From a virus: a stretch of DNA of 64,000 bases. Positions 844 to 63,426 of the stretch are shown piece by piece. Where the stretch lies: IMG/VR virus record IMGVR_UViG_3300021401_000004, positions 1 through 64,000 of that record; one strand, given 5' to 3'. Numbering within the stretch: position 1 is the first letter of the stretch; the number at the start of each line of letters is the position of its first letter. A program made the position numbers and the translations under genes. The notes under the pieces are model-generated. The model worked only from the letters and a program-made list of their open reading frames with translations. It had not been told where the DNA came from and made no database searches.

Positions 844-1346
844 ATTTTCCTCCGTTTAAAGGTCTGGTCCGATCGTTTCGGGCTATCGCCCGTAATCCGT
901 TTTCTGTACTGGTAGTTGCAAACCGAGTTCCAAACCCTCGGGCAAGTAAAATCAATAACTTACGGGCGACCTATTGTACATTTTCCGTACAATGACAGAA
1001 ATTGTTATCGCTTTCTGACAGGCCCGAATAACCAATCCAAGCCCGCAAGCAAAGCCCAGCCCGCAAAGCAGATTAAACTCCAGTCTTCGAGCCAATACCA
1101 GAAGCTTAGGATTTTCTCCGTCATCGGCTCGCCTCGGTCTTAAGTTCGGCTGCCCGCATTAAAACCCAGGATTGATTCTCGGGCGACAGTTGCCCGAAAT
1201 TCTCTGCTGGTTTCGTATACGCGGGCTGCCTGAAATTGAATTCGCGGAGCGCATCTTGCACGTAAACCGCGTCATTTGTAACCCAAGACATTGACATAAA
1301 GCCTCCGAGTCTCAGCGGACAAGTAACACGAGTAACATTCTGGCGA

Positions 1347-1757
1347 TTACTTGCCACAGCTAACGATAATCTGCCCGAATTCATCCACGGGCCTAATCGT
1401 AGCATCTCCGCCGTTCAAACATGTTACACGGGCTTCGCCGATATCCGTTTTCCGTATCTGATAGACAGTCGGATCGGGCATCCCGTTTCGCTCTGCTTCT
1501 ATTTGGTCAAAAGCGTCCGGCTTAGTTAATACTGGTGTATCTTCGGCCAGCGGCATGCCGATGGTTTCGTGTCCTTGGGCGTCTCTTGTAATCGGGCGAG
1601 CGCCCGCTGGGATGATACGTATCGCCCGAATAATCGAGTTTGACCATTCCAAATACGCCTCGGTTCGCCCGAGTTCATATTGGAGTTTTCGGTATTGCCC
1701 GAACCATATCAAATTTGATATAGCCAATGCCGCTAGAAGCGCCAATTTTGTCTTCAT
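1347..1757 (-). CDS. Hypothetical protein with N-terminal hydrophobic segment
   Basis: GGAGGAG RBS; MKTKLALLAALAISNLIWF. Confidence 0.7.
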   Translation of the reverse strand: MKTKLALLAALAISNLIWFGQYRKLQYELGRTEAYLEWSNSIIRAIRIIPAGARPITRDAQGHETIGMPLAEDTPVLTKPDAFDQIEAERNGMPDPTVYQIRKTDIGEARVTCLNGGDATIRPVDEFGQIIVSCGK

Positions 1758-2566
1758 ATTCTCCTCCGTTTACCGACTAGATTCTATCATGCACTCGAAG
1801 CCCGCGAGCCAAATATTTTCAGCCCATGCGGGCGTTTCTGCCTGAAACTTGTCCAATCGCCCGAACCAAAATGCTAAGTCTTCGGGCTTGCTGTGGATCG
1901 TCCGTATTTTCGGGCGTAACAGAATCGCCCGTAATCCGAATGACCGAGTTAGTAAGTCTCTGGTTGGTTGATTCATTTTCCGTACTTGGTTTTCCCTTGC
2001 CACTTGTCAAAAGCGTAGTCAATTAGCTGATCAATGCGCCTATTGACCGCAAGCAAGATCACAACAAGAATCAGTAGCCAACAGCACATTTAGCGCATCT
2101 CCTCTGGGATATCGCCCGTAAAGTATGGAATCGCATATCCTTCGGGCAACATCGACTTGCCCGAATCCAAGATTATCACAAATGTCTCATTCTCCGCAAT
2201 TTCATTCTGCTCAATTGATCTCATGTTCGGCCTCTTTTCTGCCCTTGCGGGCTTACTCAGATTGTTGCAACCTGCTTGCCAAACTCAAAGCCTTTAGAAT
2301 CATACGGGCGATTGTCCATTTTCCGTATTCTGCCCGAAAATGGCATCTGAACGACAATTTCTGTCATTTCCATACGTATCGGGCGAGCACGGCATAGACT
2401 CGAATCACGATACAAGCCAAGCTCGCAGCAACGTATTCGAGCGTGGATTCGTAACGTTTTCCCATACTTACGGACTATAAGTCGTTTTCCGTACTGAGTC
2501 AAGAAAATAATTGTTGACTTTGGTCGCCCGCATGCAATATGATTAGCGAGTACGGAGAACAAACAA

Positions 2567-2728
2567 ATGCATCTCAGTTACGGAATGTTCCTGATTCTAT
2601 GCTTCCTGATCGTTGCTTGCGGGCATCGGACGCCCGAAAAGAAGGGCATCCTGGACGGAATCGACACGTCCGAGCCCACGATCAAAGACTTTGGGGAATG
2701 GCTGAGGAATTACGGAGGAACGAAATGA
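2567..2728 (+). CDS. Small lipoprotein-like protein
   Basis: GGAG RBS; MHLSYGMFLILCFLIVAC; stop overlaps the next start (ATGA). Confidence 0.5.
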   Translation: MHLSYGMFLILCFLIVACGHRTPEKKGILDGIDTSEPTIKDFGEWLRNYGGTK

Positions 2729-2961
2729 GAACAGTCAGCTTGCTTCTGTTGTGTGGATTGTTAGCGGGCTGCGAACGCCCGCACCAATACCAGATTGAGC
2801 GAGTGAAAGACGTGAACGACAACGAGGTTTTCTTGCGGATTGACAAGACTACGGGTGATGAGTGTGCGATAGGCAAAGGGTTTGCAATCGTGCGACACGG
2901 AGAGTTTGGCCCGTACACCGTGCCATTTTGCAATGAGCAACCCGCAACCAAAACCGAATAG
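2725..2961 (+). CDS. Small lipoprotein
   Basis: GGAGG RBS; MRTVSLLLLCGLLAGC lipobox. Confidence 0.65.
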   Translation: MRTVSLLLLCGLLAGCERPHQYQIERVKDVNDNEVFLRIDKTTGDECAIGKGFAIVRHGEFGPYTVPFCNEQPATKTE

Positions 2962-2999
2962 ATTGCCCGTAAGTAATTGATTTTGTTTTGTTTCCGCAA

Positions 3000-3032
3000 G
3001 CCCGCAGATTCACTAGGTCTGCGGGCATTTTT
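3000..3032 (+). terminator. Rho-independent terminator
   Basis: GCCCGCAGA/TCTGCGGGC stem followed by ATTTTT. Confidence 0.7.
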
Positions 3033-4303
3033 CCCGTTGTACGGAAAGAGGATTATGCCCGAACCAAACCCGAAAGACTATCCAATACTTACGCCCGCAG
3101 ACTGGTATCTGCTGGTAAACCGAGTCCGAGACCTGTGCGAGCAATCGGGATGGAAGAACGTGTCCGAGGCTTTGCAATACGTGGTTAGACAGAAGCAACT
3201 TGCCCGTAATCAATAGGTTAGACAGTTCATTTTCCGTATAAGATTGGACGCCCGAATGCAACATGAGCGATGTGAAGAATACACGATGTCAGGCTTTATG
3301 GTAATCGAGCGGGAAGCATACTGCGAGCGATGCCAGCGAACCACGGATCACCAAGGCGAGTTTGGGCCTTGCATTCGCTGCCTGCGCCGGAGGAATACGG
3401 TAAATGGGATAGATTGACGCCCGTAAACAACACAGAGGCAGAAGAAAGATTATCTATGTTCGTGCAGTGTGGATCATACGCAGACAGAGAGCACAGACGA
3501 ATGCGGCTAGCGGGCTTGCAGTTCGAGCAGGTTAAGGGCATGATCCTGGTTTGGCATCCGTATGCCCGCTGGGATGCGCGAGGCGTGCTCGGAAGGCGCA
3601 TAAACCGAAACGAACCCTTCTGTGAGCGATTGTACTAAAACTTGCCCGCGATATCAGGAAAAGCCAGAAGAAATACGGAAAATGGACAACAGGTCACCCG
3701 TAAATGAGTACATGACAGCGAAAGATAAGGAGATAATAACCAAATGGCTAGACGCGCAAGATGATCCCTTTGGATGCTTGCAGCGAGCTAGAGGCGTTTG
3801 CAATATCGAATACCTAGTTTGGTTCGTTCTGAGGCAAGGCCCAACACTTGCCCGCTAAAGACTGATTACCAAAGTAATACTGTATGGCACACAGTAACCA
3901 CGCTCGATTTCAATTTCCCACTTGACCCCATTAGCAGCCACGATCTCCCACCAGAAATTTCTGTTGAGTTTTCTACTCAACAACAAATTCCAACGAATCC
4001 GCTAACCCAATTAGAATGAAGCGAATGCAAGCCCGATGCGTCAGAGTACACCCCGAGATGCGCCTGGATCGGGGAGACAGTTCGGTTGTGTACCACTTTA
4101 GGGTCCCTTGGGTAAAAGGATTGTTATCTTGGAGATGCCACCGGGCGCTCTACCCCACCACCCCGGTCTGCGGCGAGCCTAGGCTTGGGTAGCAAGACAT
4201 TGATTCCGTTAGTCTAAGTCCCGTTTTCCCGTGGTTTCTTAAATGCGCTTATCTGGCGCTTAACGGTCAAAAAGGGTGTCTTAGCGGCGCAAGGGGGCGG
4301 GGC

Positions 4304-4332
4304 TTGACAAATTACTAAGGTTCCTGCATAAT
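4304..4332 (+). promoter_or_regulatory. sigma70-type promoter
   Basis: TTGACA-17-CATAAT; GTG at 4340 would be leaderless. Confidence 0.7.
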
Positions 4333-4339
4333 GATTCTC

Positions 4340-4717
4340 GTGGGCAGGAAAAAGTCCCTATCGGAGCGTCAGGCGGAGATGCGCCTTCGACCGCCTGGAA
4401 GGAACAAGCAGCATAGGCAGACTAAGACCCCGACCTACGTGTCGTGGTGGCATATGATTGCTAGGTGCCGCTCAAATACTTCGGACGGGTATAAGCATTA
4501 CGGGGCAAAGGGTGTCAAAATAGTTCCGAGATGGGGTGACTTTCGTAACTTCCTTGCCGACATGGGGGAGCGCCCGAGCGGTACAACCTTGGGGCGAATT
4601 CTAGACAGAGGGAACTACGGACCTCGGAACTGTTTCTGGATGACAAAGCCTGAACAGGGGCTTCATCAGAGGAACAACAATTCTTTACGAAGATGGAAAG
4701 CTGGGAGCAAGAACTAA
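4340..4717 (+). CDS. HNH-type homing endonuclease-like protein
   Basis: TPTYVSWWHMIARC...HYGAKGVK...FRNFLADMGERP..TTLGRI...GNYGPRNCFW; the usual DRID is altered to GRIL. Confidence 0.75.
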   Translation: MGRKKSLSERQAEMRLRPPGRNKQHRQTKTPTYVSWWHMIARCRSNTSDGYKHYGAKGVKIVPRWGDFRNFLADMGERPSGTTLGRILDRGNYGPRNCFWMTKPEQGLHQRNNNSLRRWKAGSKN

Positions 4718-4736
4718 TACGGAAAACGGACAAACG

Positions 4737-5483
4737 ATGACAGACAAGAAGCTGTACACGCCGCGACAGAGATTCGAGATTGCTTTGCGCTCTGCGAAGT
4801 TCACGCGCGGGGAGTTCCCGATTCCAATTGGATTGCCGACTGAAATCTACCCTCAGATCATGGCTATATTTGACTTAAATGTCCCTGAGCGAGTGTTGGC
4901 GGAGGCGCGGGAGGGCTCACTGCCCCAACGTTACGACTTGCACTATGGCGAGGCTTGCGACCAGACAGACGAAAACGGATGCTCTGCCGAGATGGAAGAG
5001 TCCGCAACGGGAGAGTGGGTAAAATTCTCTGACGTTGTAGCGGAGGGCTCACTACCGCCAGAAATGTCGCGCTGTCCTCACTGCAACAGCCCTGCCCGTC
5101 GAATCGAATGGTGCGAAGGCTACCGTTCGCCCCACGTCTGCCCGACCGACCATATCAGCCATCAGCGACCAGATTTATTCTGCAATCTGTGCGGTGGATT
5201 GTTGGTTGAGGTCGATGGCAGCGACGATACAGTTTGCGCTAATGCCAGAGCACATGGGGAGGGCTCACTGCGGCCACCCCTCCAGGCCGATACGCTATTC
5301 GGAATATTCTGCAATGGCCAGCCTGAGACAATTCCTTCGCAACCGGGACTCTGGTGGGGCGGTTGGCAGAGACTTGCGGACTGGCTGAATCAGGGCTCAC
5401 TGCGGACGCCCGAAAGTAGAGAATCGCTGCGAAAACGATTTGAGGATACAGCGGCTTCGCCCAGCGCGGAGCCAAAGGACTAA
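4737..5483 (+). CDS. Mosaic hypothetical protein with repeated (E/Q)GSL linkers
   Basis: 248-aa ORF with CxxC motifs and four AGGGCTCACT copies. Confidence 0.7.
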   Translation: MTDKKLYTPRQRFEIALRSAKFTRGEFPIPIGLPTEIYPQIMAIFDLNVPERVLAEAREGSLPQRYDLHYGEACDQTDENGCSAEMEESATGEWVKFSDVVAEGSLPPEMSRCPHCNSPARRIEWCEGYRSPHVCPTDHISHQRPDLFCNLCGGLLVEVDGSDDTVCANARAHGEGSLRPPLQADTLFGIFCNGQPETIPSQPGLWWGGWQRLADWLNQGSLRTPESRESLRKRFEDTAASPSAEPKD

Positions 5484-5583
5484 TACGGATAATGGACAAG
5501 TGTCCCACATGCGATTCGGGCGATAAGGCGATCCGGAAGCTCGCGCCCGACGAAACCTGCTGTGAGTATGGGGGCGGGGGGGG

Positions 5584-5665
<82 letters not shown>

Positions 5666-5712
5666 CCGTGCAAGGACAAGTGGCATAGTGCGGAAAATGA
5701 ACAGGAGGGGTA

Positions 5713-6227: not shown

Positions 6228-7516
6228 AACTTTGGGCAGTTAGTTACGGGCCCGCGTGGGAGGGGAACGAGATCGATTCCATCTGGACGGATAAAGAGAC
6301 CGCCGAGGCCCGCCAGAGATTCCTGAAGGAAGAATATCCTCCCGAACACTACTGTCATTATCTTGAAGAATATGATATTAACAAACCACAAGGGAAGGTA
6401 ACTCCATGAAAATACTAGATTTTATCGGCAATGAACTCACTACGGGCGATGCTATATCCCTGAAGCCCGACCACATCATCGGTGTAATCCAGAAAATAGA
6501 CGACGGATCAATTGCCCGTGGAATCACTCTCGACGGCAAGCCTTCGGGCGAAGTCCTCCCGCCGCACATCGTAATCTGAGGAACGAACAGTGAAGTTCCG
6601 GCCACAACGCGGCGGCTTAGCGGAGTCAATGGCCGAAGTTGTAGACCTTCCAAACCGTCAAGCGCTATTAAACCATCTGGCGGGCGTAGGACTGTTGGAG
6701 GGCGGGAACCACTCGGTCAATATTCGCCCGTACTGCTACGACGACCGTACTGGCTGGAAGACTTACATTGTGGCAGTTGACGGGCAAGCTGTAGGATTTA
6801 CAGACGGACCTTGTACGGAAAACGGATAGTCAGAACCTATAATCAACAACTTACAGACAAAGAATCATGTATGTACGAGGTAGTGTGCCCGATCAACCAT
6901 CTAAGGAAGAGAAAGAGTTCTGGGATAACGTCCTGCACGACCACGGTTTGGGTATGAATCGCGGACGGCGAAAGTGGCTCATCTACGGGCACGAAGATCG
7001 GGAGAAAGACACTTCTGGAGATTTGCCCGAGGAATCCGAATAATGGTAACGTACGAAGAGACGTACCTGAGTTTCGTTAAGTATCGGGCGATGATCGGAC
7101 TACCGCCGATTACCTTCGAAGACTGGATGCACAAGCGGGAAGAACCCGTCCAGTCGCCCGGAAGGAAAACGAAAGAGTTCTTGGAACAAGTTCACGCAGG
7201 GTGAGAGCGGTTTGACTCCTGAAAATAAGTAAGGTCTCAAGTATTAGTTGAATGCTCACCAATCGCCCGAATCACGGGCCAGTAGGGGGTCTTGTGGGCT
7301 AACAGCCCCGGCCTGAAAAGGTGCAGACCCCCGAAAGTTTAGAGTTTTGTACCAAGGTCTTGCAAGCGTCTCCGGCCTAGATGTTAGCGATGGCATGGCT
7401 GGTGTGGCCCGCACCTATTGAGGCTGCTTTGGCAGCCAGGGCAAATTTTAATCAGTCGAACAGCGGGCCGGATATCCGGGCGACTTTAATGATGCGCTGG
7501 ACAATGAAGGACGCCC

Positions 7517-8721: not shown

Positions 8722-9564
8722 ATGGCCGTTACGATCCGGACAATGGGTGGTTTCGGAAATCAGGCTTTCATGTACGCCTTTTCGCTCGCCCTAAAAGCCC
8801 TCGGGAACGATGTATTTATCGAGCGGTCGTGGTTCGAGCATCAGCCCCAACGGGCTTGGGCGCTCGACAGGTTTAATACCGATTGCCAGTTCGGGCCGAT
8901 TCGCGGGCAATGTGTCCAAGAAGGCAATCTGCGGTTTCACCCGGAATTCCTTAAAAAGTACGAGCAGGATACGACGCTTATCGGCTACTGGCAGAACGAG
9001 AAGTACCTCGCGGGCGTCGAGGAACAAGTTAGAAAAGACCTAACGCTTCGGTACTACCCAAGCAACAAGTCTCTGGCAGTGGCGAATCAGATTCATAACA
9101 CGAATTCTGTGTTCCTGCACGTTCGGAGAACCGACAGCTTGTCCGCGAGCGGTCTGAAGAACCACGGAGTTTGCCCGCAGAGTTATTACCAGCGGGCAGC
9201 GAGTTACATTTCGACCCGAGTTAAAGACCCGCACTTCTTTATCTTCTCGGACGATATCGAGTGGTGCAAGCAGAATATTCAAGTCTTCGGGTATCCGGCG
9301 ACTTTTGTGGATCACAATTCTACGGGCGTAACCGAGTCGCTCGAACACGAAGTACGGAAAACGGATTCGGGCACCGAGCACGAGGACTTGTTTTTAATGT
9401 CCCGCTGCAAACACGCGATCACCGCGAACAGCTCGTTTAGCTGGTGGGGCGCGTGGCTTCAACAGAATCCCGAAAAAATTATTGTGTCCCCGAAACAGTG
9501 GTTTGTTCCCGGCAGTCCGCACGACGGATCGGAAATTGTGCCCGAAAGCTGGATGCGCCTGTGA
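8722..9564 (+). CDS. GT11 alpha-1,2-fucosyltransferase-family glycosyltransferase
   Basis: GGFGNQ, HVRRTD, FSDDIEWC, NSSFSWWGAWL. Confidence 0.92.
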   Translation: MAVTIRTMGGFGNQAFMYAFSLALKALGNDVFIERSWFEHQPQRAWALDRFNTDCQFGPIRGQCVQEGNLRFHPEFLKKYEQDTTLIGYWQNEKYLAGVEEQVRKDLTLRYYPSNKSLAVANQIHNTNSVFLHVRRTDSLSASGLKNHGVCPQSYYQRAASYISTRVKDPHFFIFSDDIEWCKQNIQVFGYPATFVDHNSTGVTESLEHEVRKTDSGTEHEDLFLMSRCKHAITANSSFSWWGAWLQQNPEKIIVSPKQWFVPGSPHDGSEIVPESWMRL

Positions 9565-13700: not shown

Positions 13701-14659
13701 AAAGGATTCTTGTTACGGGCGCGGGCGGGTTCATTGGCTCTTGGTTGGTTAAACGGCTGAAGGCTGACGGGCACTGGGTCCGGGGCGTGGATTTGAAATA
13801 TCCCGAGTATGACGAATCGCCCGCAGATGACTTTCGGATCGCGGACTTACGAGTTTTCGACAATTGTTTGCGAGCAACCGAGGGAGTCCAAGAAGTCTTC
13901 AACCTCGCGGCTTGGATGGGTGGAATTGGTTTTATCACCGAGTACCTTGCAGACATAGCGGGAAACAACATTCGTATCAATATCAACATGCTTGATGCGG
14001 CGCGGATGTGGAAAGTAAAAAAGTTTTTGTTTTCGAGTTCCGCCTGCGTCTATGCCGCTGGCAAACAGCACGACGCGAATGTAACTCCGCTAAAAGAAGA
14101 AGATGCCTATCCCGCCGATCCCGAACCTGGGTATGGCTGGGAAAAGTTGTTCACCGAGGAACTTGCCCGCTACTACGCCAAAGATTACGGGCTAGATACT
14201 CGAATCGTTCGGTTCCATAATGTTTACGGGCCGCTTGGAACTTATGACGGCGGAAAAGAAAAAGCACCTGCCGCAATCTCGCGGAAGATAGCGGAAGCCG
14301 AAGACGGCGACACGATTGATGTTTGGGGCGACGGCGAACAGACCCGTTCCTTTATGCACGTCGATGATTGCTGCGAGGGCCTTGTACGGTTAATGGATTC
14401 GGACTACCGAAGCCCGTTGAATCTCGGGACCGAAGAACTTGTGACCGTCAATCAGTTGGTTGACAAGATCGCTAAGATTTCGGGCAAGACAATAAACGTC
14501 CGACACGACCTTTCAAAACCTCAAGGTGTACGCGGGCGGAATTCGGATAACACGCGACTCCGCGAAGTTCTTGGCTGGGAACCTAAGATCACGCTGGACG
14601 AAGGATTGATTCCGACGTACAAGTGGATCGAACAACAGGTGATCGCCCGCAATGGTTGA
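13697..14659 (+). CDS. NAD-dependent epimerase, GDP-mannose 3,5-epimerase-like
   Basis: TGAGGFIG, LAAWMGGIGFI, SSSACVY, YGWEK, EKAPAA, WGDGEQTRSF, GVRGRNSDN. Confidence 0.88.
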   Translation: MKRILVTGAGGFIGSWLVKRLKADGHWVRGVDLKYPEYDESPADDFRIADLRVFDNCLRATEGVQEVFNLAAWMGGIGFITEYLADIAGNNIRININMLDAARMWKVKKFLFSSSACVYAAGKQHDANVTPLKEEDAYPADPEPGYGWEKLFTEELARYYAKDYGLDTRIVRFHNVYGPLGTYDGGKEKAPAAISRKIAEAEDGDTIDVWGDGEQTRSFMHVDDCCEGLVRLMDSDYRSPLNLGTEELVTVNQLVDKIAKISGKTINVRHDLSKPQGVRGRNSDNTRLREVLGWEPKITLDEGLIPTYKWIEQQVIARNG

Positions 14660-15848
14660 GAATGTGGCAGTCATCGGTCTTGGGAAGCTTGGAGCGCCCC
14701 TCGCGTGTTGCTTAGCCAGCAAGGGCTTTCATGTCGTCGGTGTTGACGTAGACAAGAAAAAAGTTGACGCGATCAACGACCGACGAGCGCCCGTTGAAGA
14801 AACAAGTTTGGATTTGATGATAAGTCAACTGCCCGTAGGGATTCTTCGGGCGACTAGCAGCATCGCCGAAGCAGTCCGTTTTGCGGACGTAACTTTCGTA
14901 GTCACCGCGACGCCGAGCAATCCTGACGGGCGATTTTCGCTCGAATATATTTTGCCCGTATGTGAAGAAATCGGGCGAACGCTGGCGAAGTCGAAGCTCG
15001 CATTTCATCCCGTAGTCATAACGAGCACCGTTATGCCCGGCGATACCTGGGGGCCGATTCGCGAGACTCTTGAGAAATATAGCGGGCGAAAATGCGGCGA
15101 ATCTTTCGGATTAGCTTACAACCCAGAATTTATCGCACTCGGAAGCGTGATCCACGACTTCCTGAATCCGGATTTTGTTTTGCTCGGGGCGAGCGATCCG
15201 TTAACCGAAGCCCGAGTCAGTTCGGTGTACGAGAAGATTTCGGACGCCCCCGTTTACAGAACGTCCATCGTTAACGCCGAGTTGACGAAGCTCGCAATTA
15301 ACAGCTACATCACGACAAAGATTTCGTTCGCGAACATGCTGTCCCGAATCTGTAACGATATTCCCGGTGCAGATGTGGACGCCGTGACCCAAGGAATGGG
15401 CATGGACTCCCGCATCGGTAATAAGTACCTGAAGGGCGGTGTTTCGTTCGGGGGCCCGTGCTTTCCTCGCGACAACCGGGCGCTTGCGACCCTCGGGCAA
15501 AGTTTCCCGCTCGTTATTGATAGTTTCAATCGGGCACAGATTACTTGGCTGGCGGGCGTCGTCAAACAGCACACCAAGAAGTGCGTTAATATTCTTGGAT
15601 ACCCCTATAAGGTAGGGACCAAGATTGATACGGAGTCTGCGGGCGTTGCTTTATATGAAGCACTCGATACTCCGGGATACAGTTCGTTTTCCGTATCGGA
15701 CACGGTAGTGGTAATGCTGCCCGACCCAGAGTTCAAAAATTTAGATTTTACGGGCAAGACGGTGATTGACCCGTGGCGTTTTCTTAAACACTTGGCTGAC
15801 GATCCTTCCGTCAATTACGTCCCGTTGGGCATAGGACCCAGTGAATAA
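14652..15848 (+). CDS. UDP-glucose/GDP-mannose dehydrogenase family
   Basis: IGLGKLG, YNPEF, AELTKL, KISFAN, FGGPCFPRD. Confidence 0.9.
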   Translation: MVENVAVIGLGKLGAPLACCLASKGFHVVGVDVDKKKVDAINDRRAPVEETSLDLMISQLPVGILRATSSIAEAVRFADVTFVVTATPSNPDGRFSLEYILPVCEEIGRTLAKSKLAFHPVVITSTVMPGDTWGPIRETLEKYSGRKCGESFGLAYNPEFIALGSVIHDFLNPDFVLLGASDPLTEARVSSVYEKISDAPVYRTSIVNAELTKLAINSYITTKISFANMLSRICNDIPGADVDAVTQGMGMDSRIGNKYLKGGVSFGGPCFPRDNRALATLGQSFPLVIDSFNRAQITWLAGVVKQHTKKCVNILGYPYKVGTKIDTESAGVALYEALDTPGYSSFSVSDTVVVMLPDPEFKNLDFTGKTVIDPWRFLKHLADDPSVNYVPLGIGPSE

Positions 15849-17768: not shown

Positions 17769-18062
17769 ATGCCGAACATAAGCTCGGTTACACCTGCTGC
17801 TCTGATCCCGACTGCGAGAACCGCAGCGCCCGCAGCGGCGTCAAGCACCGCGAATCCGAATTTTCCCGCGACGATTATTACGTGGTCGTTGCCAAACACG
17901 CCCGTGACTCCGCAGGTCCAATCAAGTCAGTCGTTTTCAACGACGCAAGGGCAAGTATTCGCAGATTTTTGTTCGGGCCAGATCGTGACTCCTGCGGGCG
18001 ACATCACGGGTTCGCCTCTAGGGTACGCCCTCGTCGAGGGAACCCCGCACAACAACGATTAA
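17769..18062 (+). CDS. Hypothetical S/T/P-rich protein
   Basis: GGAGG RBS; 97 aa. Confidence 0.6.
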   Translation: MPNISSVTPAALIPTARTAAPAAASSTANPNFPATIITWSLPNTPVTPQVQSSQSFSTTQGQVFADFCSGQIVTPAGDITGSPLGYALVEGTPHNND

Positions 18063-18466
18063 TGTATTCGCTATTCTGTGACGGATCGTCCAAGCACGGT
18101 ACGGGCTATTTCGGGTACGTCCTGTTTAAGGACAAGATTGAAATAGATCGCGGCTGGGGGATGATCGGGCAAGGTATTAAGCCTAAAGTCGCGGAGAAGT
18201 ACGCGATCTGCTACGGTCTGGATTCCTTCGTACGGAAAATGGATTGTACTTGCCCGCTAAAAGTTTTCGGTGACGCTAAACAAGTCATCGAATCGGTTGA
18301 TAAAGATTCTGATATACGTCTTCGAACTGAAACTATTCGGGGGCTCGGAGTGCCCGTGGAATTCAAATGGATTTCCCGGAACTCTAACACATTGGCGAAC
18401 GATCTAGCCAGAAAAATGATCGAATATTTTCGGATCGCTGATAAGGGCCCGAAAATCGAAAGGTAG
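18062..18466 (+). CDS. RNase HI-like protein
   Basis: FCDGSS, AE, GDAKQV, WISRNSNTLANDLA. Confidence 0.8.
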   Translation: MYSLFCDGSSKHGTGYFGYVLFKDKIEIDRGWGMIGQGIKPKVAEKYAICYGLDSFVRKMDCTCPLKVFGDAKQVIESVDKDSDIRLRTETIRGLGVPVEFKWISRNSNTLANDLARKMIEYFRIADKGPKIER

Positions 18467-19123: not shown

Positions 19124-19755
19124 AAAGGAGATTAGAAAATGGCTCGAAAGAAGGGCGACTACAGTATCGGCGCGAAACGAAAAGGTCATACTCATATCGA
19201 AAGCTATGAGAAAAAGACTAATTTCGGCGGAGTAGGAATGAAACGTGCTGGAAACCCGATGTATCAGGATGGTCGCGGGCAACAACAGAGTGGAATGAAT
19301 CCTGATTACGCTGGCGGAACCGATTCAGGCGCGACGGGGAATATTCCCGAGTAGTACGGAAAACGGATTGACAATGAATCTTGTGGAATCCCAACAGGAA
19401 ATGTTGGAACGGGAGAAAGTTGCCCGAAAGAAACGCAGGCAGAGAGCGGGTTCGAAACGAAAACGGACCCGCAAGTCTGTAAAAACTTTGCTCGTAAATC
19501 TGGCGGAACACGCCAAAGCTTCGGGTAAAGTTCGGGCGTGGGCAATTCAGCAACTACTACTACTTGGCGGAAAGCCCGTACAGCCCTTCGAGGAATCTTA
19601 TGACGAACCAGAATCAAAGCCCGAATCCGTTCCCGCCTTCCGAGGAGCCGATTTGGGACGCCCTGAAAGTGGGCTATCCGTGGGTACTGGAAACTGAAGG
19701 TTTGGACCCAAACGATACCCACATTAACGGGTCTTGCGTAGAGTGAAAAGACACT

Positions 19756-20169
19756 ATGAAAGTTCAAGTCTCGCGTAGCGTACTCAGTGGTTATCGTAAG
19801 CGGGCATTGAAAAAGTACCCCGACGAGTACATGGAATCGATCTTCGGGCGAGTTGACGGGCAGACGGTTTTGATATTGGCGTTCTACCCTATTGAGCACA
19901 AAGGCACGCCCGAAAAATGTGAGTACGATGCCGCGAGTGTTGACGAACAGAAAGACGGCGAGGATTGCCCGCCTAAAATGAAGTGGCTCGGAACGATCCA
20001 CTCTCATCCAGATGCGAGTGCCCAGCCGAGCGAAGCTGATTGGGAAACGGGCCGCATCGACGGCGAACTTATCAGCGGGATTTATCAAATTCTGCCGACC
20101 AGAGGAAAGCGGAAGACGGGCAAAGTTCGGTTCTATTCGGAACCCCTGCAAGAACTCGAAACGGTTTAG
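19756..20169 (+). CDS. JAB/MPN+ metallopeptidase
   Basis: YPDE glutamate and HSHP-x5-S-x2-D JAMM motif. Confidence 0.85.
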   Translation: MKVQVSRSVLSGYRKRALKKYPDEYMESIFGRVDGQTVLILAFYPIEHKGTPEKCEYDAASVDEQKDGEDCPPKMKWLGTIHSHPDASAQPSEADWETGRIDGELISGIYQILPTRGKRKTGKVRFYSEPLQELETV

Positions 20170-20249
20170 TACGGAAAATGGACAATGTACGAATTGATAT
20201 TCATTATACGACTCTGCTTCAAACTCGTTAAGTTTATTCGGGCCATCCT

Positions 20250-39592: not shown

Positions 39593-39611
39593 GACGGAGA
39601 GGTAACTCCAA

Positions 39612-43409: not shown

Positions 43410-43415
43410 CAAGTA

Positions 43416-43444
43416 ATTGTACAGAAAACGAACTAGTTTGTCAA
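43416..43444 (-). promoter_or_regulatory. sigma70 promoter with 13-bp motif in the spacer
   Basis: TTGACA-aactagttcgttttctg-TACAAT; ATG 7 nt downstream. Confidence 0.85.
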
Positions 43445-45572: not shown

Positions 45573-45596
45573 TCCGTTTTCCGTACAGGAGATTTC

Positions 45597-49099: not shown

Positions 49100-49117
49100 T
49101 ACGGAAAACGGACAAAT

Positions 49118-51646: not shown

Positions 51647-51867
51647 TAATAATCGAGGGGGTCTTCCTCGCGAATTATTCCGCGTATTTCTAGACTTTGC
51701 ATTTCGTTGAATTCTAGGCGGTGCCCGAAGTGCTTCCACAGAAATTCTTTCAGCAGAGTTTCGGGCTCTCCCGAATAGAAGCAAAACGACGAACTGCTGC
51801 GCGAACTTTGCCCGATCCAAACTGAACTTTTACATTTGTGGCAGGCTAATTCGTAGGTATCGCTCAT
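51643..51867 (-). CDS. Small Zn-binding inserted gene
   Basis: CHKC..H..H; has its own promoter; leaderless ATG. Confidence 0.7.
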   Translation of the reverse strand: MSDTYELACHKCKSSVWIGQSSRSSSSFCFYSGEPETLLKEFLWKHFGHRLEFNEMQSLEIRGIIREEDPLDYY

Positions 51868-51873
51868 TCCCAA

Positions 51874-51902
51874 ATTATACGGAAAACGGACAGGATTGTC
51901 AA
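51874..51902 (-). promoter_or_regulatory. Consensus sigma70 promoter with 13-bp motif in the spacer
   Basis: TTGACA-atcctgtccgttttccg-TATAAT. Confidence 0.9.
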
Positions 51903-51905: not shown

Positions 51906-54900
51906 ATGGCAGGAAGCCTACAATTATCGGGCGGGTCCCCTAGCAACAAGCAGCCACGCTACGCCCCGCTGTTTCAAGGCCGCTGGGTAGTGGGCTTGGT
52001 TTCTCAGCGGTCGCCTCTGCGAAGCTCGGCCAGCGCCTACGTAGAGCGATATATTGGCGGGCAATCCGACGCTCTGATCGACGGTTCGAATTGCGAGATT
52101 ACCCCCAAACTCACGCTTGCCCGAAGGCCCGGAAACTCAGTTTACAACTCGAATATTTTTACCGCGATTGACGCTTTCTACGCCTTCCGGATGTTCGGGC
52201 CTACGAATGAAGATATCCAGGTTCTCGCGGACACGGCTACAAATGTCTACGATGTCTCGAACAACCAGAAGATTTCAATTTTCACGAAATCTCCGGGCAG
52301 CGGGCAAACTTTCTTTCAGTCGGTCGGCAACACGCTGTTTTTCGGCGACGGAATAGACCAGAAGAAGTACGTTCAAAGTCTGTTTACCCGCACTAATAGT
52401 TCTGCGGGCCTACCGAATATCGGGGATAACGTAACGTTGTCCGCCGCATCGACTCCGTTTATCTCGACGTACCTGATCGACACGAACGGGAATATCGAGG
52501 AATTACTGGCGACCGCCGTTACCACGGTTTCAAACGTTGCGTACGTGGAATCCACGAACACGTTGACTTTGACCGTTGGATCGACTGCGGGCATTACAGT
52601 TGGAGACAATTACGTTGTTTGGAACTTCACGAACGCGACTTGGTTGAACGGCGTTACTTGGGAAGTTTTAACTGCGGGCGGATCGACCGTAACCGCGAAG
52701 CTCTTGAATACCCTGCACGTAGATTACGCTTCTGCGTCGGATACGGGCAACGTTACGGATGCCCAAGGCGGGGTTCCAGTTACGGGCGGCAGCGTCCCTT
52801 CGTGGAATACTCAAGTCCCGAGTTCAGCAAATGACTTCCAAGGCGGGATTACAATTGACGGTACGGCGGTTTGGATTAATCGCGGACTCCCGATTGAAAA
52901 TTGGGGGATTGCGGCGGGCACGACTTCCCCGAATGTCGTCGTCGGAACCTCGACTTCCGCGTGGAAAGCCACGACTTTCTTCTCATTGTCGGGCGCGGTT
53001 GTTGATACGCAGTTTGCTGGGCAGACAAATATCTGGCAAGTTACGGTTGCGGGGAAATCAGGATTCTCCAATCCGTTTACGAGCAACCCGGTTTCAGGCA
53101 CGACTACGGTTATTGACGGTGGGGCGACTTGGAAATGTGTTGCCAGCACTTTTTCGGGCGACTCTTCCTGGTCCGCGAGCACGACCTTCGCCGCCGACCA
53201 TCTTATCGTAGCCAACGCTTCGGGCACCCCGAGTTTATTTCAACTTCAGCCCAATCCTTTTCCGGTTTATAAACTGGTTGCGGGCGTGTACGTAACCGCA
53301 AATTTCTACCCGCATAACGGTGCGTTTTCCGGGCAATGTGAACTCCGGAACCCCGTAGACGGGACGAACAATCCCGGCGTTGCTCCATACACTCTCCAAG
53401 CGACCGCTAACGGGAGCAGCGTTTTATTCAACCCCCCGCAACAGAATAACGCCGGACATACTTCGCCGTTGCAGTGGGCGACTTTGGACGCTGCCGGGGA
53501 TATCACGGGCTTTACGACACCGTATGCCGGGGCTACGCCCGGAAATTACACGCTTTCGACGTTCGGGACTTTAACGATCCCAACTGCCGGACAGTATTCG
53601 TTTACGATATTTCACGATGATGGAATGTTCTGGGGCATTGGGCCCTCGGGTACGAACCAGCCAACAAGAATCTCGGGGCCGACAAACTGCCCGGCACCTA
53701 ACGCGACATTGACCGCGCTCCAAAGCTACCCAGTTATGGGCGCGAATAACGTCTCTGGGCAATTTCAGGATGTTTTCGTTATTAATTTCCCGGCAGCCGG
53801 AGATTACCCGTTCGAAATTGATTTCGCGAAATCGTCGAGCACGGGTCAGTTTCTTGATCTGTATTGTAACGGGCAGACTCCGATTCCGGGCACGCCCGAA
53901 ACGGGGACTACGCAACCGATTTGGCCCGCTTTTTCAACCGCTTTCGCCCCTAATTACGCAACCGTTTCGGAGATGAACAGCGCCGGAATCGGCGTCCTCG
54001 GGCCCGGATCGTTTTCGGGCGGCAGTGGACCCGGACCTCTGAGTTGGGCGAACCTCGGCCCGATCACGGATTCCGTGTGGACGGCTTCGGTGAACTACAC
54101 GTTGCCAGACACGACAATTACCGACCCGAATAACAACACTGAAGGCCCGTTCCGGGCGGGTGTATCGGGAACCACGACTCCGACTTTCGCCACGGGCATC
54201 AATCAGCTTACGCTCGACAACCCGAATCTGATCTGGATCAATCTTGGTCCGGCTTCGGCCCCCGCGCCTGGAACTATTTCAGCATTCAACGGCGGATTTA
54301 TATACTACGTTGCTTTGGTGAATTCCGCAACTGATACGGTTTCAAACGCATCCCCGGCAAGCGCGGTTACGGGAAACTTTATTGGGGCTGCGGGCGTTCA
54401 AGTAACTGGCGGGCTTCCGCCTATAGCAAGTATTGACCCGCAATCGGATTACGTAGCCATTTTCCGTACAACGGACGGTCTTGCCGTTCCGTTCCTGATT
54501 CCGGGCACTACGAACGCTATCTGGACGGTTCCGCTGCCCGATTACCTCGTCAACGGGTATTTTGACGACACTCCCGATACGGGCTTGAATAACCTGATTG
54601 AAGGCCCGATTGAAGGCGAAAACACTCCGCCAGCTTTGGGAGCCGTCAACCTCACGCTGTATCTCCAGCGAATATTCTACAGTATCGGGAACACCGTGTT
54701 TTACACGTCGGGACCAGATGCGCCCGTGGGCAATGGATTTGAGGGAACCGCGCCCGATAATTTCCAAGAACTTCAGTCCAGAGTAACCCGGCTAGTCCCG
54801 ACAATTGTTGGGCTATTTATATTCACGGTCTCGGATATTTATCTGATCGCGAATACGGGCGGAACAATTCCTCAGGCGGTTACTTACGCCCAAGGTCTGG

Positions 54901-55676: not shown

Positions 55677-55688
55677 TACGGAAAACGG

Positions 55689-56378
55689 ATGCCCGATAAT
55701 ATCGCAAGTCATCTCAATATAAACACGCGCGGTTACGCGCCCGTAGCTTCGCCGCCCGCGACTCAGTTGCAAGAGCAACCGTTGATCCCGACCCGAAGTC
55801 CGTTACTTAGATTCTCGGCTCCGAATATTCCAGGATCGTTTCCTTCGTTTGATACCCTTACGGGCTACCATATGGGCGGGAAAATCCCGCAGTGGCGGAT
55901 TCCCACGGTTCCGACACAGACGGGAACGACTAGTAGCTCGACAGCGGCGGCAACGACCGTTATTTCTTCAAGCAGCACGAGCACGAATAACCCGCCGAAG
56001 GCCCAGACCGCCTCGGTTACAACTTCGGTACTGTCTCCTGCGGGACAGTTTACGGGCGTAATCTCGATGGCGAAAGCATTTATCGTCCTGTCGATTTCGG
56101 TCAATTCCGCCGCCCGAGCCCGGTTGTATTCGACGGCAGCCGCCCAGAATGTGGACAAAAGTCGTCCACAAACTCAAGGTCCGGGATTCGGCACCGAGCA
56201 AGGAATTATCGGCGACGTTGTTCTTACGAGCGCCCCGACAGTTTGGTACACGGAAAACATGACGGGCACGAACGGGGATAGCCCGCAATCAACAGCCGCG
56301 TATTTGACCGTGGATAATCTTACGGCTTCGAGCATGGCGGTTAACGTTTCTATCGTGTACGTGCCGCTACAGAGCTAG
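55689..56378 (+). CDS. Putative virion protein
   Basis: 229 aa, S/T-rich. Confidence 0.6.
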   Translation: MPDNIASHLNINTRGYAPVASPPATQLQEQPLIPTRSPLLRFSAPNIPGSFPSFDTLTGYHMGGKIPQWRIPTVPTQTGTTSSSTAAATTVISSSSTSTNNPPKAQTASVTTSVLSPAGQFTGVISMAKAFIVLSISVNSAARARLYSTAAAQNVDKSRPQTQGPGFGTEQGIIGDVVLTSAPTVWYTENMTGTNGDSPQSTAAYLTVDNLTASSMAVNVSIVYVPLQS

Positions 56379-56657: not shown

Positions 56658-56686
56658 ATAGTACAGAAAACGAACAGGAATGTCAA
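56658..56686 (-). promoter_or_regulatory. sigma70 promoter with 13-bp motif in the spacer
   Basis: TTGACA-ttcctgttcgttttctg-TACTAT. Confidence 0.8.
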
Positions 56687-61934: not shown

Positions 61935-61955
61935 TTGCTAACTGTAGGTATACAA

Positions 61956-62102
61956 ATGCCCTTCAAATCAGTCGCGCAGCAGAAATATCTTTACTCACAC
62001 CCGACAATTCTCGGGCGAAAAGCACTGAAAGAGTGGAGCGAAAAGACCAACTTCAAAGCTCTGCCCGAAAAGAAATCCCCAAAGAAATCAGGTAAAAAGT
62101 AA
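61956..62102 (+). CDS. Small basic MPFKS-type phage protein
   Basis: MPFKSVAQQKYL...LPEKK; 48 aa. Confidence 0.65.
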   Translation: MPFKSVAQQKYLYSHPTILGRKALKEWSEKTNFKALPEKKSPKKSGKK

Positions 62103-62316
62103 TGTCGATGAATCCCCAAACTATTCCTACTCCCCTTCAATGCAAGAACTGCGGTGGATCGTTCTCGGACGGCAAATGCCAGTCCTGCGGAAGCCGTGTA
62201 GCCATCGCCCGAAGTCAATTTGAAACTGACCAGCATCTTCGGTCAAGATTAGACGGCGGGGCTTACTTCGTGCATTTCGGGAAGCTCGAAGAACCAGGAC
62301 GCCCGGAACCAGAGCT

Positions 62317-63100
62317 TCATACGGATGAGGAAGAGTAGGCTAAAGGCCCGCTAGATAGTCTGCGGGCGATTCGTTCGGACAGGATATTCCATGCAGTTGC
62401 AGCCACGAGTGGAATTTGTCCGTTTCCAATGGCGTGGATGCGGTCCATGTAGTTGGCCACCCCATTGCCGCCTCTGCAAAGTTGGGGTCGGTATATATCG
62501 GGTCGGTCTCTGAAGTCCTCAATCCCTCGGACATTTTGGCACCACGGTATTGCGGGCTTCCACGGAATCGAACTTTTGAGGAGCCCTTGTATTCGCTGGC
62601 TCCGAGGGTTGGCAGCGAGAATCCATATTCGTTCTCTTTTTATGCCAAGCTCCGCAGGCTTTGCCTGAAAGCACTCCCCATTCCGCATCATACCCCATTT
62701 GGGCAATATCCCGCAAAACTCTGGATAACCCGCGTTTGGTAAGCAGTGGGCTATTTTCAATCCATACAAGGGGAGCTTCACATTCTCGGGCGATTCTAGG
62801 GAAATGCGACCATAGGCCGCTTCGTTCTCCATCCAGACCGAGACCCGTTCCTGCGGCGGCAACGTCTTGGCAAGGAAAGCCGCCCGAAACCACGTCAACA
62901 ATTCCTCGCCACGGGTGTCCGTTGAAGGTACAAACATCGTCCCAAATGGGAAACGGAAGAAGGATGCCGTCATTCTGCCGTTGCATGAGGATTCGGGCGC
63001 AGTAGGGGTTGATTTCCACGGCACACACGGCTCTCCATCCGAGCAGTTTGCTCGCGAGAATTCCTCCACCAGCGCCCGCGAAAAGTGCCAACTCATTCAT
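62317..63100 (-). pseudogene. C5 cytosine methyltransferase, two overlapping subunit frames, +1 frameshift at ~62637-62641
   Basis: LFAGAGG, GGFPCQ and IENS in one frame; RERIWI and IGNG continue in another; removing one A from an A5 run restores both overlapping frames. Confidence 0.8.
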
Positions 63101-63116
63101 AGTTCCTCAGATTGAA

Positions 63117-63145
63117 ATTATACGGAAAACGGAGTAGAAAGTCAA
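63117..63145 (-). promoter_or_regulatory. sigma70 promoter with 13-bp motif in the spacer
   Basis: TTGACT-ttctactccgttttccg-TATAAT. Confidence 0.88.
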
Positions 63146-63409
63146 ATGGCTGACGAAGGACAAGGTGCTCCCGCAGATTTTGGCGGGCGAGTTCTACCTA
63201 ACCCAACGGGGATAAAGCCGACTTCGAGCGAAGACGATGCCCGTAAATCCGACACGCCCGTGGGGGCAAAGTTCAGCGTCCAAAACGCTCCCGCAGATCA
63301 GGACAAGGCGAACGGGATTAGCCCGCACCCTCTGCATTTATACGCGGCTAAGCGCGGCGCTCCCGTCCGAAAACTCGGGGCGTCGCCCGTAGACCCTAAA
63401 CAACACTAG
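63146..63409 (+). CDS. Hypothetical protein
   Basis: 87 aa; GGAG upstream. Confidence 0.55.
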   Translation: MADEGQGAPADFGGRVLPNPTGIKPTSSEDDARKSDTPVGAKFSVQNAPADQDKANGISPHPLHLYAAKRGAPVRKLGASPVDPKQH

Positions 63410-63426
63410 TACGGAAAAAGGATTCT

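Follow-up and report, generated by a model that had tools for sequence, protein, structure and literature searches.

What does a phage gain from a short asymmetric word repeated throughout its genome, and does such a word act on DNA or in the transcript? The window analyzed here, a 64-kb stretch (64,000 nucleotides) of a 92,960-bp phage genome, had been described preliminarily as carrying about 30 copies of a 13-bp asymmetric motif resembling operators or stoperators. The core word TACRGAAAAYGRA occurs exactly 29 times in the window, compared to 0.03 expected from dinucleotide shuffles, and 51 times with up to one mismatch (0.67 expected), confirming a dispersed and strongly non-random word. 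The whole genome holds 45 exact copies (25 on the plus strand, 20 on the minus strand) and no match to the reversed control word. With its flanks, the motif reads (T)(W)R-TACRGAAAAYGRA-(Y), spanning about 17 bp at a density of about one per kb; position −1 is always R, −2 mostly W and −3 often T, and +13 is Y. The motif lacks dyad symmetry, and no second box recurs at constant spacing from −25 to +45.

Every position in the preliminary description holds a copy, but six are one-mismatch copies (35655, 35811, 63410, 977, 2481, and 54456), four minus-strand copies start one base lower than given (977, 2481, 3226, and 54456), and one exact copy, at 15683 on the minus strand, had been overlooked. 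Copies in the leftward arm and control region are as follows (G numbers denote related phage genomes).

896–908 (−): exact, intergenic, 52 nt upstream of ORF 520–843(−); identical in G001
977–989 (−): one mismatch, intergenic
1444–1456 (−): exact, within ORF 1347–1757(−); retained in G001 though the upstream flank diverges
1972–1984 (−): exact, within ORF 1819–2022(−)
2315–2327 (−): exact, intergenic
2474–2502 (−): sigma-70-like promoter TTGACT-17-TATAGT (10/12), whose spacer holds the next copy
2481–2493 (−): one mismatch, in the spacer of this same-strand promoter
3226–3238 (−): exact, ends the leftward series at the divergent control region
3674–3686 (+): exact, begins the rightward series in this control region; retained in G001, downstream flank diverged

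To the right of the control region lie the following copies, together with four that overlap promoters and are listed with them below.

4718–4730 (+): exact, directly after the stop of ORF 4331–4717; ATG 4737 is 6 nt downstream
5484–5496 (+): one mismatch, directly after the stop of ORF 4737–5483
5689–5701 (+): one mismatch, 11 nt upstream of start 5713
6814–6826 (+): exact, 3' end of ORF 6629–6829
9353–9365 (+): exact, within ORF 8722–9564; 17-mer intact in G001, both flanks and encoded residues changed
15683–15695 (−): exact, anti-oriented within UDP-sugar dehydrogenase gene 14652–15848(+)
18231–18243 (+): exact, within ORF 18062–18466
19355–19367 (+): exact, directly after the stop of 19139–19354; next start 6 nt downstream
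20170–20182 (+): exact, directly after the stop of 19807–20169
21799–21811 (+): one mismatch; exact in G001
23867–23879 (+): exact, directly after the stop of terminase large subunit gene 22010–23866
23863–23892 (+): weak promoter-like site with TG-extended −10; −35/spacer overlapped by the preceding copy
28343–28355 (+): exact, 15 nt past terminator-like hairpin 28312–28327 and 10 nt before ATG 28366
29501–29513 (+): exact, within ORF 28885–29751
30574–30586 (−): exact, anti-oriented, intergenic, immediately past hairpin 30550–30570
32723–32735 (+): exact, intron-rich capsid region
33577–33589 (+): exact, intron-rich capsid region
35655–35667 (+): one mismatch, 3' end of ORF 35458–35670
35811–35823 (+): one mismatch, directly after the stop of ORF 35568–35810; last A is the A of ATG 35823
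37694–37706 (−): exact, anti-oriented, beginning directly after the stop of 37430–37693(+)
39010–39022 (+): exact, adjoining the 3' end of a counter-oriented HNH-AP2 gene
43832–43844 (+): exact, within glycosyltransferase/methyltransferase gene 43456–45162
45573–45585 (−): exact, anti-oriented, between stop 45572 and Shine-Dalgarno (SD)/ATG 45597
49100–49112 (+): exact, 5 nt before ATG 49118
54456–54468 (−): one mismatch, anti-oriented within a 1256-aa gene; identical in G001
55677–55689 (+): exact, filling the whole gap from stop 55676 to ATG 55689, whose A is its last A; retained in G001, upstream flank diverged
63410–63422 (+): one mismatch, directly after the stop of 63146–63409; ATG 63427 is 4 nt downstream

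Positional bias accompanies the enrichment. Among the 45 exact copies, 36 are co-oriented with transcription (p = 7e-5) and 9 are anti-oriented; 22 are intergenic, compared to 16% of the genome called intergenic (p = 3e-7), and 23 lie inside ORFs, where they are read in two reading frames. These intragenic and anti-oriented copies count against an operator reading. Many copies begin directly after a stop codon and finish 0 to 15 nt ahead of the next start. A stop codon ends at −1 in 27 of 134 distinct sites (background, 4.8), and an ORF starts within 40 nt of the motif in 49 of 133, with peaks 2, 5, and 6 nt after it. At about one-quarter of sites, a start codon lies 0 to 6 nt past the motif with no other SD element, an arrangement that would also suit a role in mRNA. 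Eight copies had been placed immediately after a stop codon: all follow TAA or TAG, and for seven this is the stop of an ORF that we found, but the triplet before 49100 closes no ORF of 80 aa or longer. The remark that some copies occupy intron loops was followed as far as the two in the intron-rich capsid region. Motif orientation flips where two gene blocks meet, within a few hundred bases of the local strand change at both switch points.

The same word occurs at the same density in eight related phage genomes or fragments. G001, G006 to G010, and G012, with 68 to 89% nucleotide identity to this genome where aligned, carry 0.5 to 1 exact copies per kb; portal relatives at 55% identity lack the motif. 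At orthologous places, motif columns are 97% conserved compared to about 82% for the flanks, and vary only at R/Y positions. Anti-oriented copies are as strictly conserved as sense copies: one in a helicase gene (genome position 76095) persists across six genomes despite changes in its flanks and in the encoded residues. Because the motif is conserved at orthologous places, within genes and in both orientations, purifying selection acts on the DNA. Beyond phages, two prophage-like islands of one Acidobacteriaceae genome (~7.5 Mb) carry the same word. Twelve of the 16 exact matches in that genome, where by our own estimate about 2 would be expected by chance, fall on one 205-kb contig, and 29 of the 30 copies on this contig with up to one mismatch lie within its two low-GC islands, which adjoin tRNA-Met genes. 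The host of this uncultured soil phage is probably a member of the Acidobacteriaceae; a terminase search of species-representative genomes returned no close prophage relative.

The claim that the motif is operator-like is supported by its overlap with sigma-70-like promoters, observed 11 times compared to 3.0 ± 1.8 under random placement. Across eight genomes, 12 of 149 distinct copies share one fixed register, TTGACA-N6/7-(reverse complement of motif)-TAnnnT (score of at least 10/12), in which the motif contributes the spacer, plus the first two bases of the −10, to a near-consensus promoter on the opposite strand. As the N6 stretch varies, these promoters are not simple duplicates. They precede real ORFs through an SD and ATG or a leaderless ATG, and the genes behind them are counter-oriented genes and the integrase operon. 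In the window, the motif forms the spacer and −10 start of four such promoters.

43416–43444 (−): TTGACA-17-TACAAT (11/12), promoter of counter-oriented MT-A70 methyltransferase gene 42828–43409(−); exact motif 43420–43432 (+), 23 nt before ATG 43456
51874–51902 (−): perfect promoter TTGACA-17-TATAAT (12/12), with an ATG 6 nt past the −10 opening a 72-codon CxxC ORF, apparently leaderless; exact motif 51878–51890 (+), 15 nt before ATG 51906
56658–56686 (−): promoter TTGACA-17-TACTAT (10/12), with GGAGGG and an ATG downstream on this strand; exact motif 56662–56674 (+), retained in G001, G007, and G008
63117–63145 (−): TTGACT-17-TATAAT (11/12), promoter of counter-oriented ORF 62317–63096(−); exact motif 63121–63133 (+), 12 nt before ATG 63146

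Since the motif points against the promoter it overlaps in this register, no single orientation rule fits both uses.

We propose, at roughly even odds, that the motif provides operator and roadblock sites for a phage-encoded DNA-binding regulator, stoperator-like in function. The 17-mer would be the docking site of a putative sequence-specific protein that is most probably phage-encoded and, as the site has no dyad symmetry, most probably binds as a monomer. Where sites are built into strong host-type sigma-70 promoters, the bound protein would cover the spacer and −10 and shut the promoter. Its targets would include the integrase operon and at least one leftward early promoter, together with counter-oriented genes, namely that for the MT-A70 methyltransferase and several short ORFs. 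At gene boundaries and within genes, the same protein could be held along each transcription unit and hinder passing RNA polymerase, in the manner of stoperators. The net effect would be whole-genome silencing, whether during lysogeny or as a timed shut-off. The tyrosine integrase retains its catalytic residues (R..HxxR..H..Y), and this, like the tRNA-Met genes beside the motif-bearing islands, indicates a temperate context. Searching the rest of the genome for a helix-turn-helix (HTH) repressor, as had been suggested, yielded no gp71-like repressor but one clear HTH protein, which combines a Fis-type HTH_8 domain with a CxxC..HxxxxH zinc finger (genome positions 91323–91778, minus strand). 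Motif and HTH protein occur together in G000, G001, and G012, which may reflect shared descent only; the protein has no counterpart in the Acidobacteriaceae genome with the motif-bearing islands. A multicopy family of small AP2-like proteins is present in every motif-bearing genome, islands included. Both are weak candidates for the binder.

Alternatively, the motif might work in mRNA as a gene-start signal that recruits ribosomes, a protein or an RNA factor, or as a processing site where polycistronic transcripts would be cut a short way ahead of each ribosome-binding site, with its 3' GGA serving as a weak SD element. Consistent with this, 80% of copies lie on the sense strand, many of the genes at the 49 start-proximal sites have no other SD, and the upstream stop is often part of the extended word, as in the start-associated sequences (SAS) of Cluster K mycobacteriophages (PMC3203893). 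We nevertheless regard an mRNA role as unlikely: distances to the start run from −1 to >1000 nt, half of the copies are deep within genes, the motif has no AGGAG core, and the conservation of anti-oriented copies would go unexplained. The fixed-register overlap, moreover, puts the motif upstream of the start points of those transcripts, so that there it can act only on DNA.

The motif might instead be a phage-specific promoter or activator site, through which a putative sigma-like or MotA-like factor would redirect host RNA polymerase to middle and late genes while competing with the early promoters that overlap it on the other strand; that face-to-face arrangement would then form an elegant switch. 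The virion block (~17 to 65 kb) has almost no sigma-70-like promoters scoring at least 10/12 and therefore needs another signal, and one copy sits between a terminator-like hairpin and a gene (28312–28366). Yet six-frame searches revealed neither a T7-type polymerase nor a sigma region 2, leaving no phage RNA polymerase or sigma gene, and the motif has no companion element at constant spacing, whether −10-like or of another kind. At several sites, the start codon overlaps or adjoins the motif, too close for a transcript to begin downstream of it. Motif density in the leftward replication block, a block with sigma-70 promoters of its own, equals or exceeds that in the virion block, and the reversed 20% of copies and intragenic half fit poorly; we thus consider this quite improbable. 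We hold out equally little hope for a polar signal in DNA metabolism, whether Chi-like marking or protection, a lagging-strand template site that signals priming or helicase action, a site-specific nick, or a site recognized by AP2-like proteins derived from homing endonucleases. The phage does encode its own primase, helicase, polymerase, and recombinases, AP2-like proteins accompany the motif everywhere, and orientation flips exactly where gene blocks, possibly replication arms, join. Spacing is slightly more regular than random (CV of 0.72 to 0.82 compared to 0.98) and near Okazaki-fragment size. However, the motif changes direction together with the genes around it, with an offset of no more than a few hundred bases at either switch point; known Chi and primase sites span 3 to 8 nt; and neither the enrichment at stop/start junctions nor the fixed promoter register would be explained.

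A dispersed, repeated operator word is also found in the large temperate Bacillus phage SPbeta. Its SPBRE repeats are bound by MrpR/YopR, an integrase-like master repressor, and in the present phage too a gene with a tyrosine-recombinase fold lies behind a word-bearing promoter. Unlike MrpR/YopR, this recombinase keeps its catalytic Arg, His, and Tyr and therefore looks like a working integrase rather than a repressor. The Cluster K SAS, a 13-bp asymmetric word of unknown function conserved across diverged relatives, likewise lies mostly in one orientation, often a few bases before a start and sometimes with the upstream stop within the word (PMC3203893). Virtually every SAS sits 3 to 7 bp from the start, and SAS include AGGAG and are limited to the non-structural half of the genome (PMC3203893), whereas only one-quarter to one-third of copies here are start-proximal and the motif, lacking AGGAG, is genome-wide. 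Similar in pattern are the operators and stoperators of L5-type phages (PMC9283540). As in Cluster A mycobacteriophages (L5 gp71 and the TipsytheTRex repressor), an asymmetric 13-bp core is repeated dozens of times across an integrase-bearing genome, in promoters and short intergenic gaps (PMC9283540). The suggested resemblance thus stands for the dispersed word, its co-orientation, intergenic excess, promoter overlap, and integrase, but not for the repressor, as no gp71-like protein was found in this phage. In addition, the probable host belongs to the Acidobacteriaceae and not the Actinobacteria, the intragenic half and reversed 20% of copies exceed what is described for L5, and the recurrent fixed-register fusion of the site with opposite-strand promoters, at their spacer and −10, sets this motif apart. 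Nothing indicates membership of the L5 gp71 family; what the two systems may share is stoperator-like function.

The 13-bp word TACRGAAAAYGRA occurs 29 times exactly in the window, against 0.03 copies expected, and 51 times with up to one mismatch, against 0.67 expected. The whole 93-kb genome holds 45 exact copies and 85 with up to one mismatch, and none of a reversed control word. All copies listed in the preliminary description, which had proposed an operator- or stoperator-like motif, were present at their positions, and the strong enrichment bears them out; one exact copy, at 15683 on the minus strand, had been overlooked. Alignment of the 45 copies stretches the word to about 17 bp, with a purine always at -1, mostly A or T at -2, often T at -3 and a pyrimidine at +13, and revealed no partner box from -25 to +45. 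The word lacks dyad symmetry, and its core holds two ACGGA-like direct half-repeats 7 bp apart. In the full-text literature, the 13-mer and its sub-words matched primers by chance and nothing else. An RNA hairpin, through pairing of TACGG with a downstream CCCGTA, was rejected as a general feature, being true of some early-region and intron copies only.

The IMG/VR record (92,960 bp, rated 100% complete, 52% G+C) carries rightward genes from about 3.7 to 65.4 kb and leftward genes from 3.6 kb via the record ends down to 65.5 kb. Its first 64 kb, the window, encode tail-fibre-like proteins and a glycan/nucleotide-sugar gene cluster along with the following features:

22010-23866, terminase large subunit
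24587-26683, SU10-type portal
31260-31433, group I intron in the capsid region (Rfam, 51.4 bits)
35000-35267, permuted tmRNA (Rfam, 65.8 bits)

Beyond the window, the leftward block encodes a family A DNA polymerase, a primase, a helicase and a RecA/UvsX-like recombinase, together with Erf, an exonuclease, SSB and a tyrosine integrase. The record ends (window 1-470 and genome 92514-92960) fall within a pentapeptide-repeat gene whose sequence repeats in tandem with periods of 15 and 60 bp, which makes the assembly a circularly permuted one; the "terminal repeat" of the related record G001 corresponds to window positions of about 28468-28564. A G run (10 plus 77 bases) at 5576-5663, within a called ORF, is probably a sequencing or assembly artefact and not biology. 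Some 600 bp at 3686-4300, between a divergent control region and a strong promoter at 4304-4332, contain no convincing ORF; the stretch is kept in G001 (92%) and partly in the related fragment G012 (71%) and could be an origin or a non-coding RNA.

Gene directions and the intergenic fraction were taken from crude ORF-based gene calls, by which 36 of the 45 exact copies are co-oriented with the local gene block (p = 7e-5), some of the nine exceptions being conserved, and 22 are intergenic in 16% of the genome (p = 3e-7), the other 23 lying within ORFs. Copies are spaced slightly more evenly than at random. Both gene blocks carry the word at similar density, the leftward replication block, itself equipped with sigma-70 promoters, being at least as dense as the promoter-poor virion block. 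A stop codon directly precedes the word at 27 of 134 distinct sites in seven genomes (background 4.8), and start codons peak 2, 5 and 6 nt 3' of it: a start lies within 40 nt at 49 of 133 sites, about 25 of these within 0-6 nt, while the others are far off or intragenic. The copy at 55677 occupies the whole stop-to-ATG gap, and the ATG overlaps the end of the word both there and at 35811.

The word is shared by G001 (91.5 kb; 89% identity over 64% of the genome; 47 exact copies), by the five fragments G006-G010 (about 75% identity where aligned) and by the 21.9-kb G012 (about 70% identity), with 0.5-1 exact copies per kb in these six fragments, and is absent from four fragments whose portal is just 55% identical and whose G+C is 39-41%. 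In 43 aligned pairs of sites, identity is 97% in the motif columns against about 82% in the flanks, and changes within the motif are almost confined to three degenerate positions, where they remain within R or Y. G001 keeps the word unaltered at 9353 and 55677 although the neighbouring sequence, and partly the encoded residues, changed; six genomes of about 75% identity retain an anti-oriented copy in the helicase gene (genome 76095), while its flanks vary. Intragenic copies mostly use two of the three frames, reading V-R/Q-K-T-D or S/C-T-E-N-G/E, and one phage protein has homologues in other metagenomes whose C-termini read ...PV(R/Q)KTD, which is the word in frame 1. That the word is a real, oriented, clade-wide signal selected at the level of DNA is strongly supported.

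In G002, a distant relative, the repeated word AGTAGGCTAGTTGCC was rejected as an analogous genome-wide motif, since all 6 of its copies lie close together within 1.6 kb. Six copies of AGTAGGCTAGTTGCCTAATAG lie in the 1.6 kb at 30.6-32.2 kb of G002, each facing, on the other strand, the SD/ATG of a short gene and with a hairpin following; this array is a local repeated regulatory cassette. The 60-kb G013 was also set aside, having in common only the generic HTH_8 helix pair and carrying no dispersed word.

Megablast of 16 kb against the INPHARED phages gave no match, and a terminase search of species-representative genomes found no close prophage. Searches of genome collections for the word gave mostly single chance matches, and the three in the Acidimicrobiia contig G011:C27 proved to be unrelated tandem CCGTAA and CGGAAAA repeats, so that this contig was dismissed as a relative. 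One 205-kb contig stood out: CAVYHM010000003.1, from an Acidobacteriaceae MAG of about 7.5 Mb, holds 12 of the 16 exact matches of that genome. With up to one mismatch, 29 of its 30 copies fall inside two low-GC islands (about 20-58 kb and 124-169 kb; 52-55% G+C against 59% in the rest of the contig), the remaining one lying at about 191.7 kb in host flank past the second island. The islands have tail-region genes in common with the phage and encode a full-length homologue (63% identity) of the window's 1256-aa protein, homologues of its 730-aa and 229-aa proteins, an integrase-like gene and AP2-like genes; a tRNA-Met gene lies near each island, and a recA-like gene at 117590-118540 on the contig is 53% identical to the phage RecA/UvsX-like protein. 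Most simply, the islands would be prophages or prophage remnants; so read, they show that word-bearing elements integrate into chromosomes and make Acidobacteriaceae the probable host family of the phage. The word is no host-wide signal. A second compositional feature follows the same clade: the pentamer CGGGC/GCCCG is found 1118 times in the 93 kb, or once every 83 bp, a frequency about 3.9 times what dinucleotides predict, without strand bias, in all reading frames and with weak flank preferences (TTD-CGGGC-RA). Only genomes of the clade with the 13-mer show the excess (seen in G001, G007, G008 and G012); the 55%-portal relatives lack it, and in the Acidobacteriaceae contig the host flanks have about 4 per kb against 12-15; GCCCG is about twofold enriched 2-20 nt 3' of the 13-mer.

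Scoring for sigma-70-like promoters gives 23 sites of at least 10/12 in the phage, several with a TG-extended -10. Because they are mostly intergenic and co-oriented with genes, these canonical promoters are evidently read by host polymerase. The word and such sites overlap in 11 cases, against 3.0 +/- 1.8 under random placement, and at 12 of 149 distinct sites in eight genomes the overlap has an identical register, with the promoter on the strand opposite the word: TTGACA is followed by 6-7 non-conserved bases and then by the word's reverse complement, the last TA of which starts the -10 TAnnnT. One fixed-register promoter of this genome is a perfect 12/12. The arrangements are as follows:

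42828-43409, counter-oriented MT-A70 methyltransferase gene behind a fixed-register promoter
72-codon CxxC ORF, apparently leaderless, behind a fixed-register promoter
near 56.6 kb, minus-strand ORF with a strong SD behind a fixed-register promoter
62317-63096, ORF with no Pfam match behind a fixed-register promoter
outside the window, operon of a 62-aa ORF and the integrase behind a fixed-register promoter
2474-2502, other register, word in the spacer of a same-strand promoter
genome 70982, other register, word abutting the -35, conserved in G007 and G008

A protein sitting on the word would occlude the promoters in which it is embedded, which is the geometry of an operator. In two counter-oriented genes (minus strand, at 51861-51902 and at 43407-43444) the ATG lies 6 nt after the consensus -10, and their mRNAs are therefore probably translated leaderless. 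Downstream of the word there is no -10-like element at a fixed or loosely fixed distance; a MotA-like layout was discarded after -10 elements 8-16 nt downstream proved not enriched, as was a general role of the reverse complement as the -10 of antisense promoters, the sixth-position T not being enriched.

We propose, with belief and doubt evenly weighed, that the word docks a phage regulator that represses the embedded promoters and hinders elongation genome-wide, similar in action to the L5 operators and stoperators. Bound regulator would shut off the promoters carrying the word, and at the remaining copies it could hinder elongation across the genome. The stoperator likeness put forward in the preliminary description stands as far as the dispersed asymmetric 13-bp sites, their orientation and their promoter overlap are concerned; we do not extend it to the protein, and we claim no membership in the L5 gp71 family because no gp71-type repressor was found in Pfam or PHROG scans of about 100 ORFs. 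A start-associated signal acting in mRNA is unlikely: a role purely at that level would leave unexplained both the conserved reversed copies and those embedded in promoters, which lie upstream of the start points of the transcripts concerned. We think it improbable that the word is a specialised promoter or activator site, given that six-frame searches found neither a T7-type RNA polymerase (PF00940, whose control matched no control genome) nor sigma region 2 (PF04542), that the word has no -10-like partner, that it is at least as dense in the leftward block with its own sigma-70 promoters, and that several start codons overlap it, half of its copies are intragenic and 20% are reversed. A polar signal in DNA metabolism likewise has a slim chance of being correct.

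The regulator of the proposed silencing was sought among the phage proteins; the candidates, with related and neighbouring proteins, are as follows:

genome 91323-91778, minus strand, 151-aa HTH protein in the early leftward operon
genome 91775-92128 (L002:13775-14128), minus strand, 117-aa cysteine-rich protein with a weak double zinc-ribbon match
window 4331-4717, plus strand, free-standing AP2-like protein behind an 11/12 promoter
genome 76407-76724, minus strand, free-standing AP2-like protein
window 39065-39772, minus strand, AP2-like protein fused to an HNH nuclease
genome 79127-79747, 206-aa protein, a further candidate

A search for an HTH repressor elsewhere in the genome had been suggested; within the same scans of about 100 ORFs it yielded a single clear HTH protein and no immunity repressor. 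This 151-aa protein has a Fis/NtrC-type HTH (HTH_8, E = 4.8e-11) followed by a CxxC..HxxxxH segment, which AlphaFold folds as a short hairpin plus helix, the model being confident only in the HTH (overall pLDDT 63). Its PDB matches are NtrC/Fis and not the TipsytheTRex repressor, which is a precedent for a two-module monomer reading such a site (PMC9283540). By analogy, a monomer combining HTH and zinc-finger-like segment would suit an asymmetric 13-17-bp site. The protein and the word occur together in this genome, G001, G012 and a small soil contig; another 77 loci have just the HTH and not this protein. The co-occurrence may simply be shared ancestry, and there is no counterpart in the Acidobacteriaceae genome whose islands bear the motif. 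The SD of the 117-aa gene abuts the motif copy at 92135 (minus strand), and its stop overlaps the start of the HTH_8 gene. The AP2-like family of small DNA-binding proteins (W..M..RC...YGGRGI...DMG.RP...NC.W) occurs in every motif-bearing genome, islands included, often in several copies and variably placed; by these variable positions its members look more like homing-endonuclease relics than an essential regulator. The tyrosine recombinase keeps R, HxxR, H and Y when aligned to a P2-type integrase and is therefore unlikely to be an MrpR-like repressor. The 1256-, 730- and 686-aa virion ORFs, considered as hidden RNA polymerases, had no PDB sequence matches and were rejected as such; the Atlas places the 1256-aa ORF next to uncharacterised viral proteins, with a faint hint of a crAss muzzle protein.

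More tentatively, and with considerable doubt, we speculate that silencing of the stoperator kind arose independently in large Acidobacteriaceae phages and prophages, with an unrelated two-module monomer (e.g., Fis-type HTH plus zinc finger) or an AP2-like protein as reader, and with a site that doubles as spacer and -10 start of opposite-strand consensus promoters. One bound protein could then both block rightward read-through and silence the counter-oriented methyltransferase and integrase genes. Acidobacteria are a dominant soil phylum that has been little studied and whose phages have hardly any genetics, and experimental characterisation of stoperator-type global silencing is, to our knowledge, limited to Cluster A mycobacteriophages; if true, an unrelated acidobacterial system would mean that stoperator logic is widespread and evolved more than once. 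The standard sigma-70 consensus makes the promoter-operator cassettes directly testable in E. coli with candidate proteins, and a compact, orthogonal repressor/operator pair could result. In practice the motif also serves as a marker: it picked out two prophage-like islands and so a probable host for an orphan 93-kb phage clade.

Among known systems, T7-like and phiEco32-like promoters come with their own RNA polymerase or sigma factor (none was found here in six frames, with a weak polymerase control) and are strictly co-oriented with room for a start, whereas here 20% of copies are reversed and ATGs overlap the word. The binder of SPBRE in SPbeta, MrpR, is a catalytically dead repressor of tyrosine-recombinase fold, unlike the recombinase here with its catalytic residues. 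The start-associated sequences of Cluster K are words at gene starts (PMC3203893). Virtually all lie 3-7 bp before a start, contain an AGGAG core and are confined to the non-structural half, in contrast to the present word, with 49 of 133 sites within 40 nt of a start, only GGA triplets, and copies in both gene blocks. Cluster A is closer, with a 13-bp asymmetric site scattered in more than 20 copies (here 45 exact in 93 kb), orientation that follows transcription (here 36/45) and sites in promoters and short intergenic spaces, although here 23 of 45 lie inside ORFs. Its gp71-type repressor, whose binding stops initiation and, depending on orientation, elongation, is a monomer with an N-terminal HTH plus a Stoperator domain, and the life cycle of these phages is temperate; here there are an integrase with catalytic residues and islands by tRNA-Met, and no close prophage was found by terminase search. 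Specific to the present system are the probable acidobacterial host, the lack of a recognisable repressor and the fusion of site and opposite-strand promoter in a fixed register, a design not described for L5, in which the site itself serves as spacer and start of the -10.
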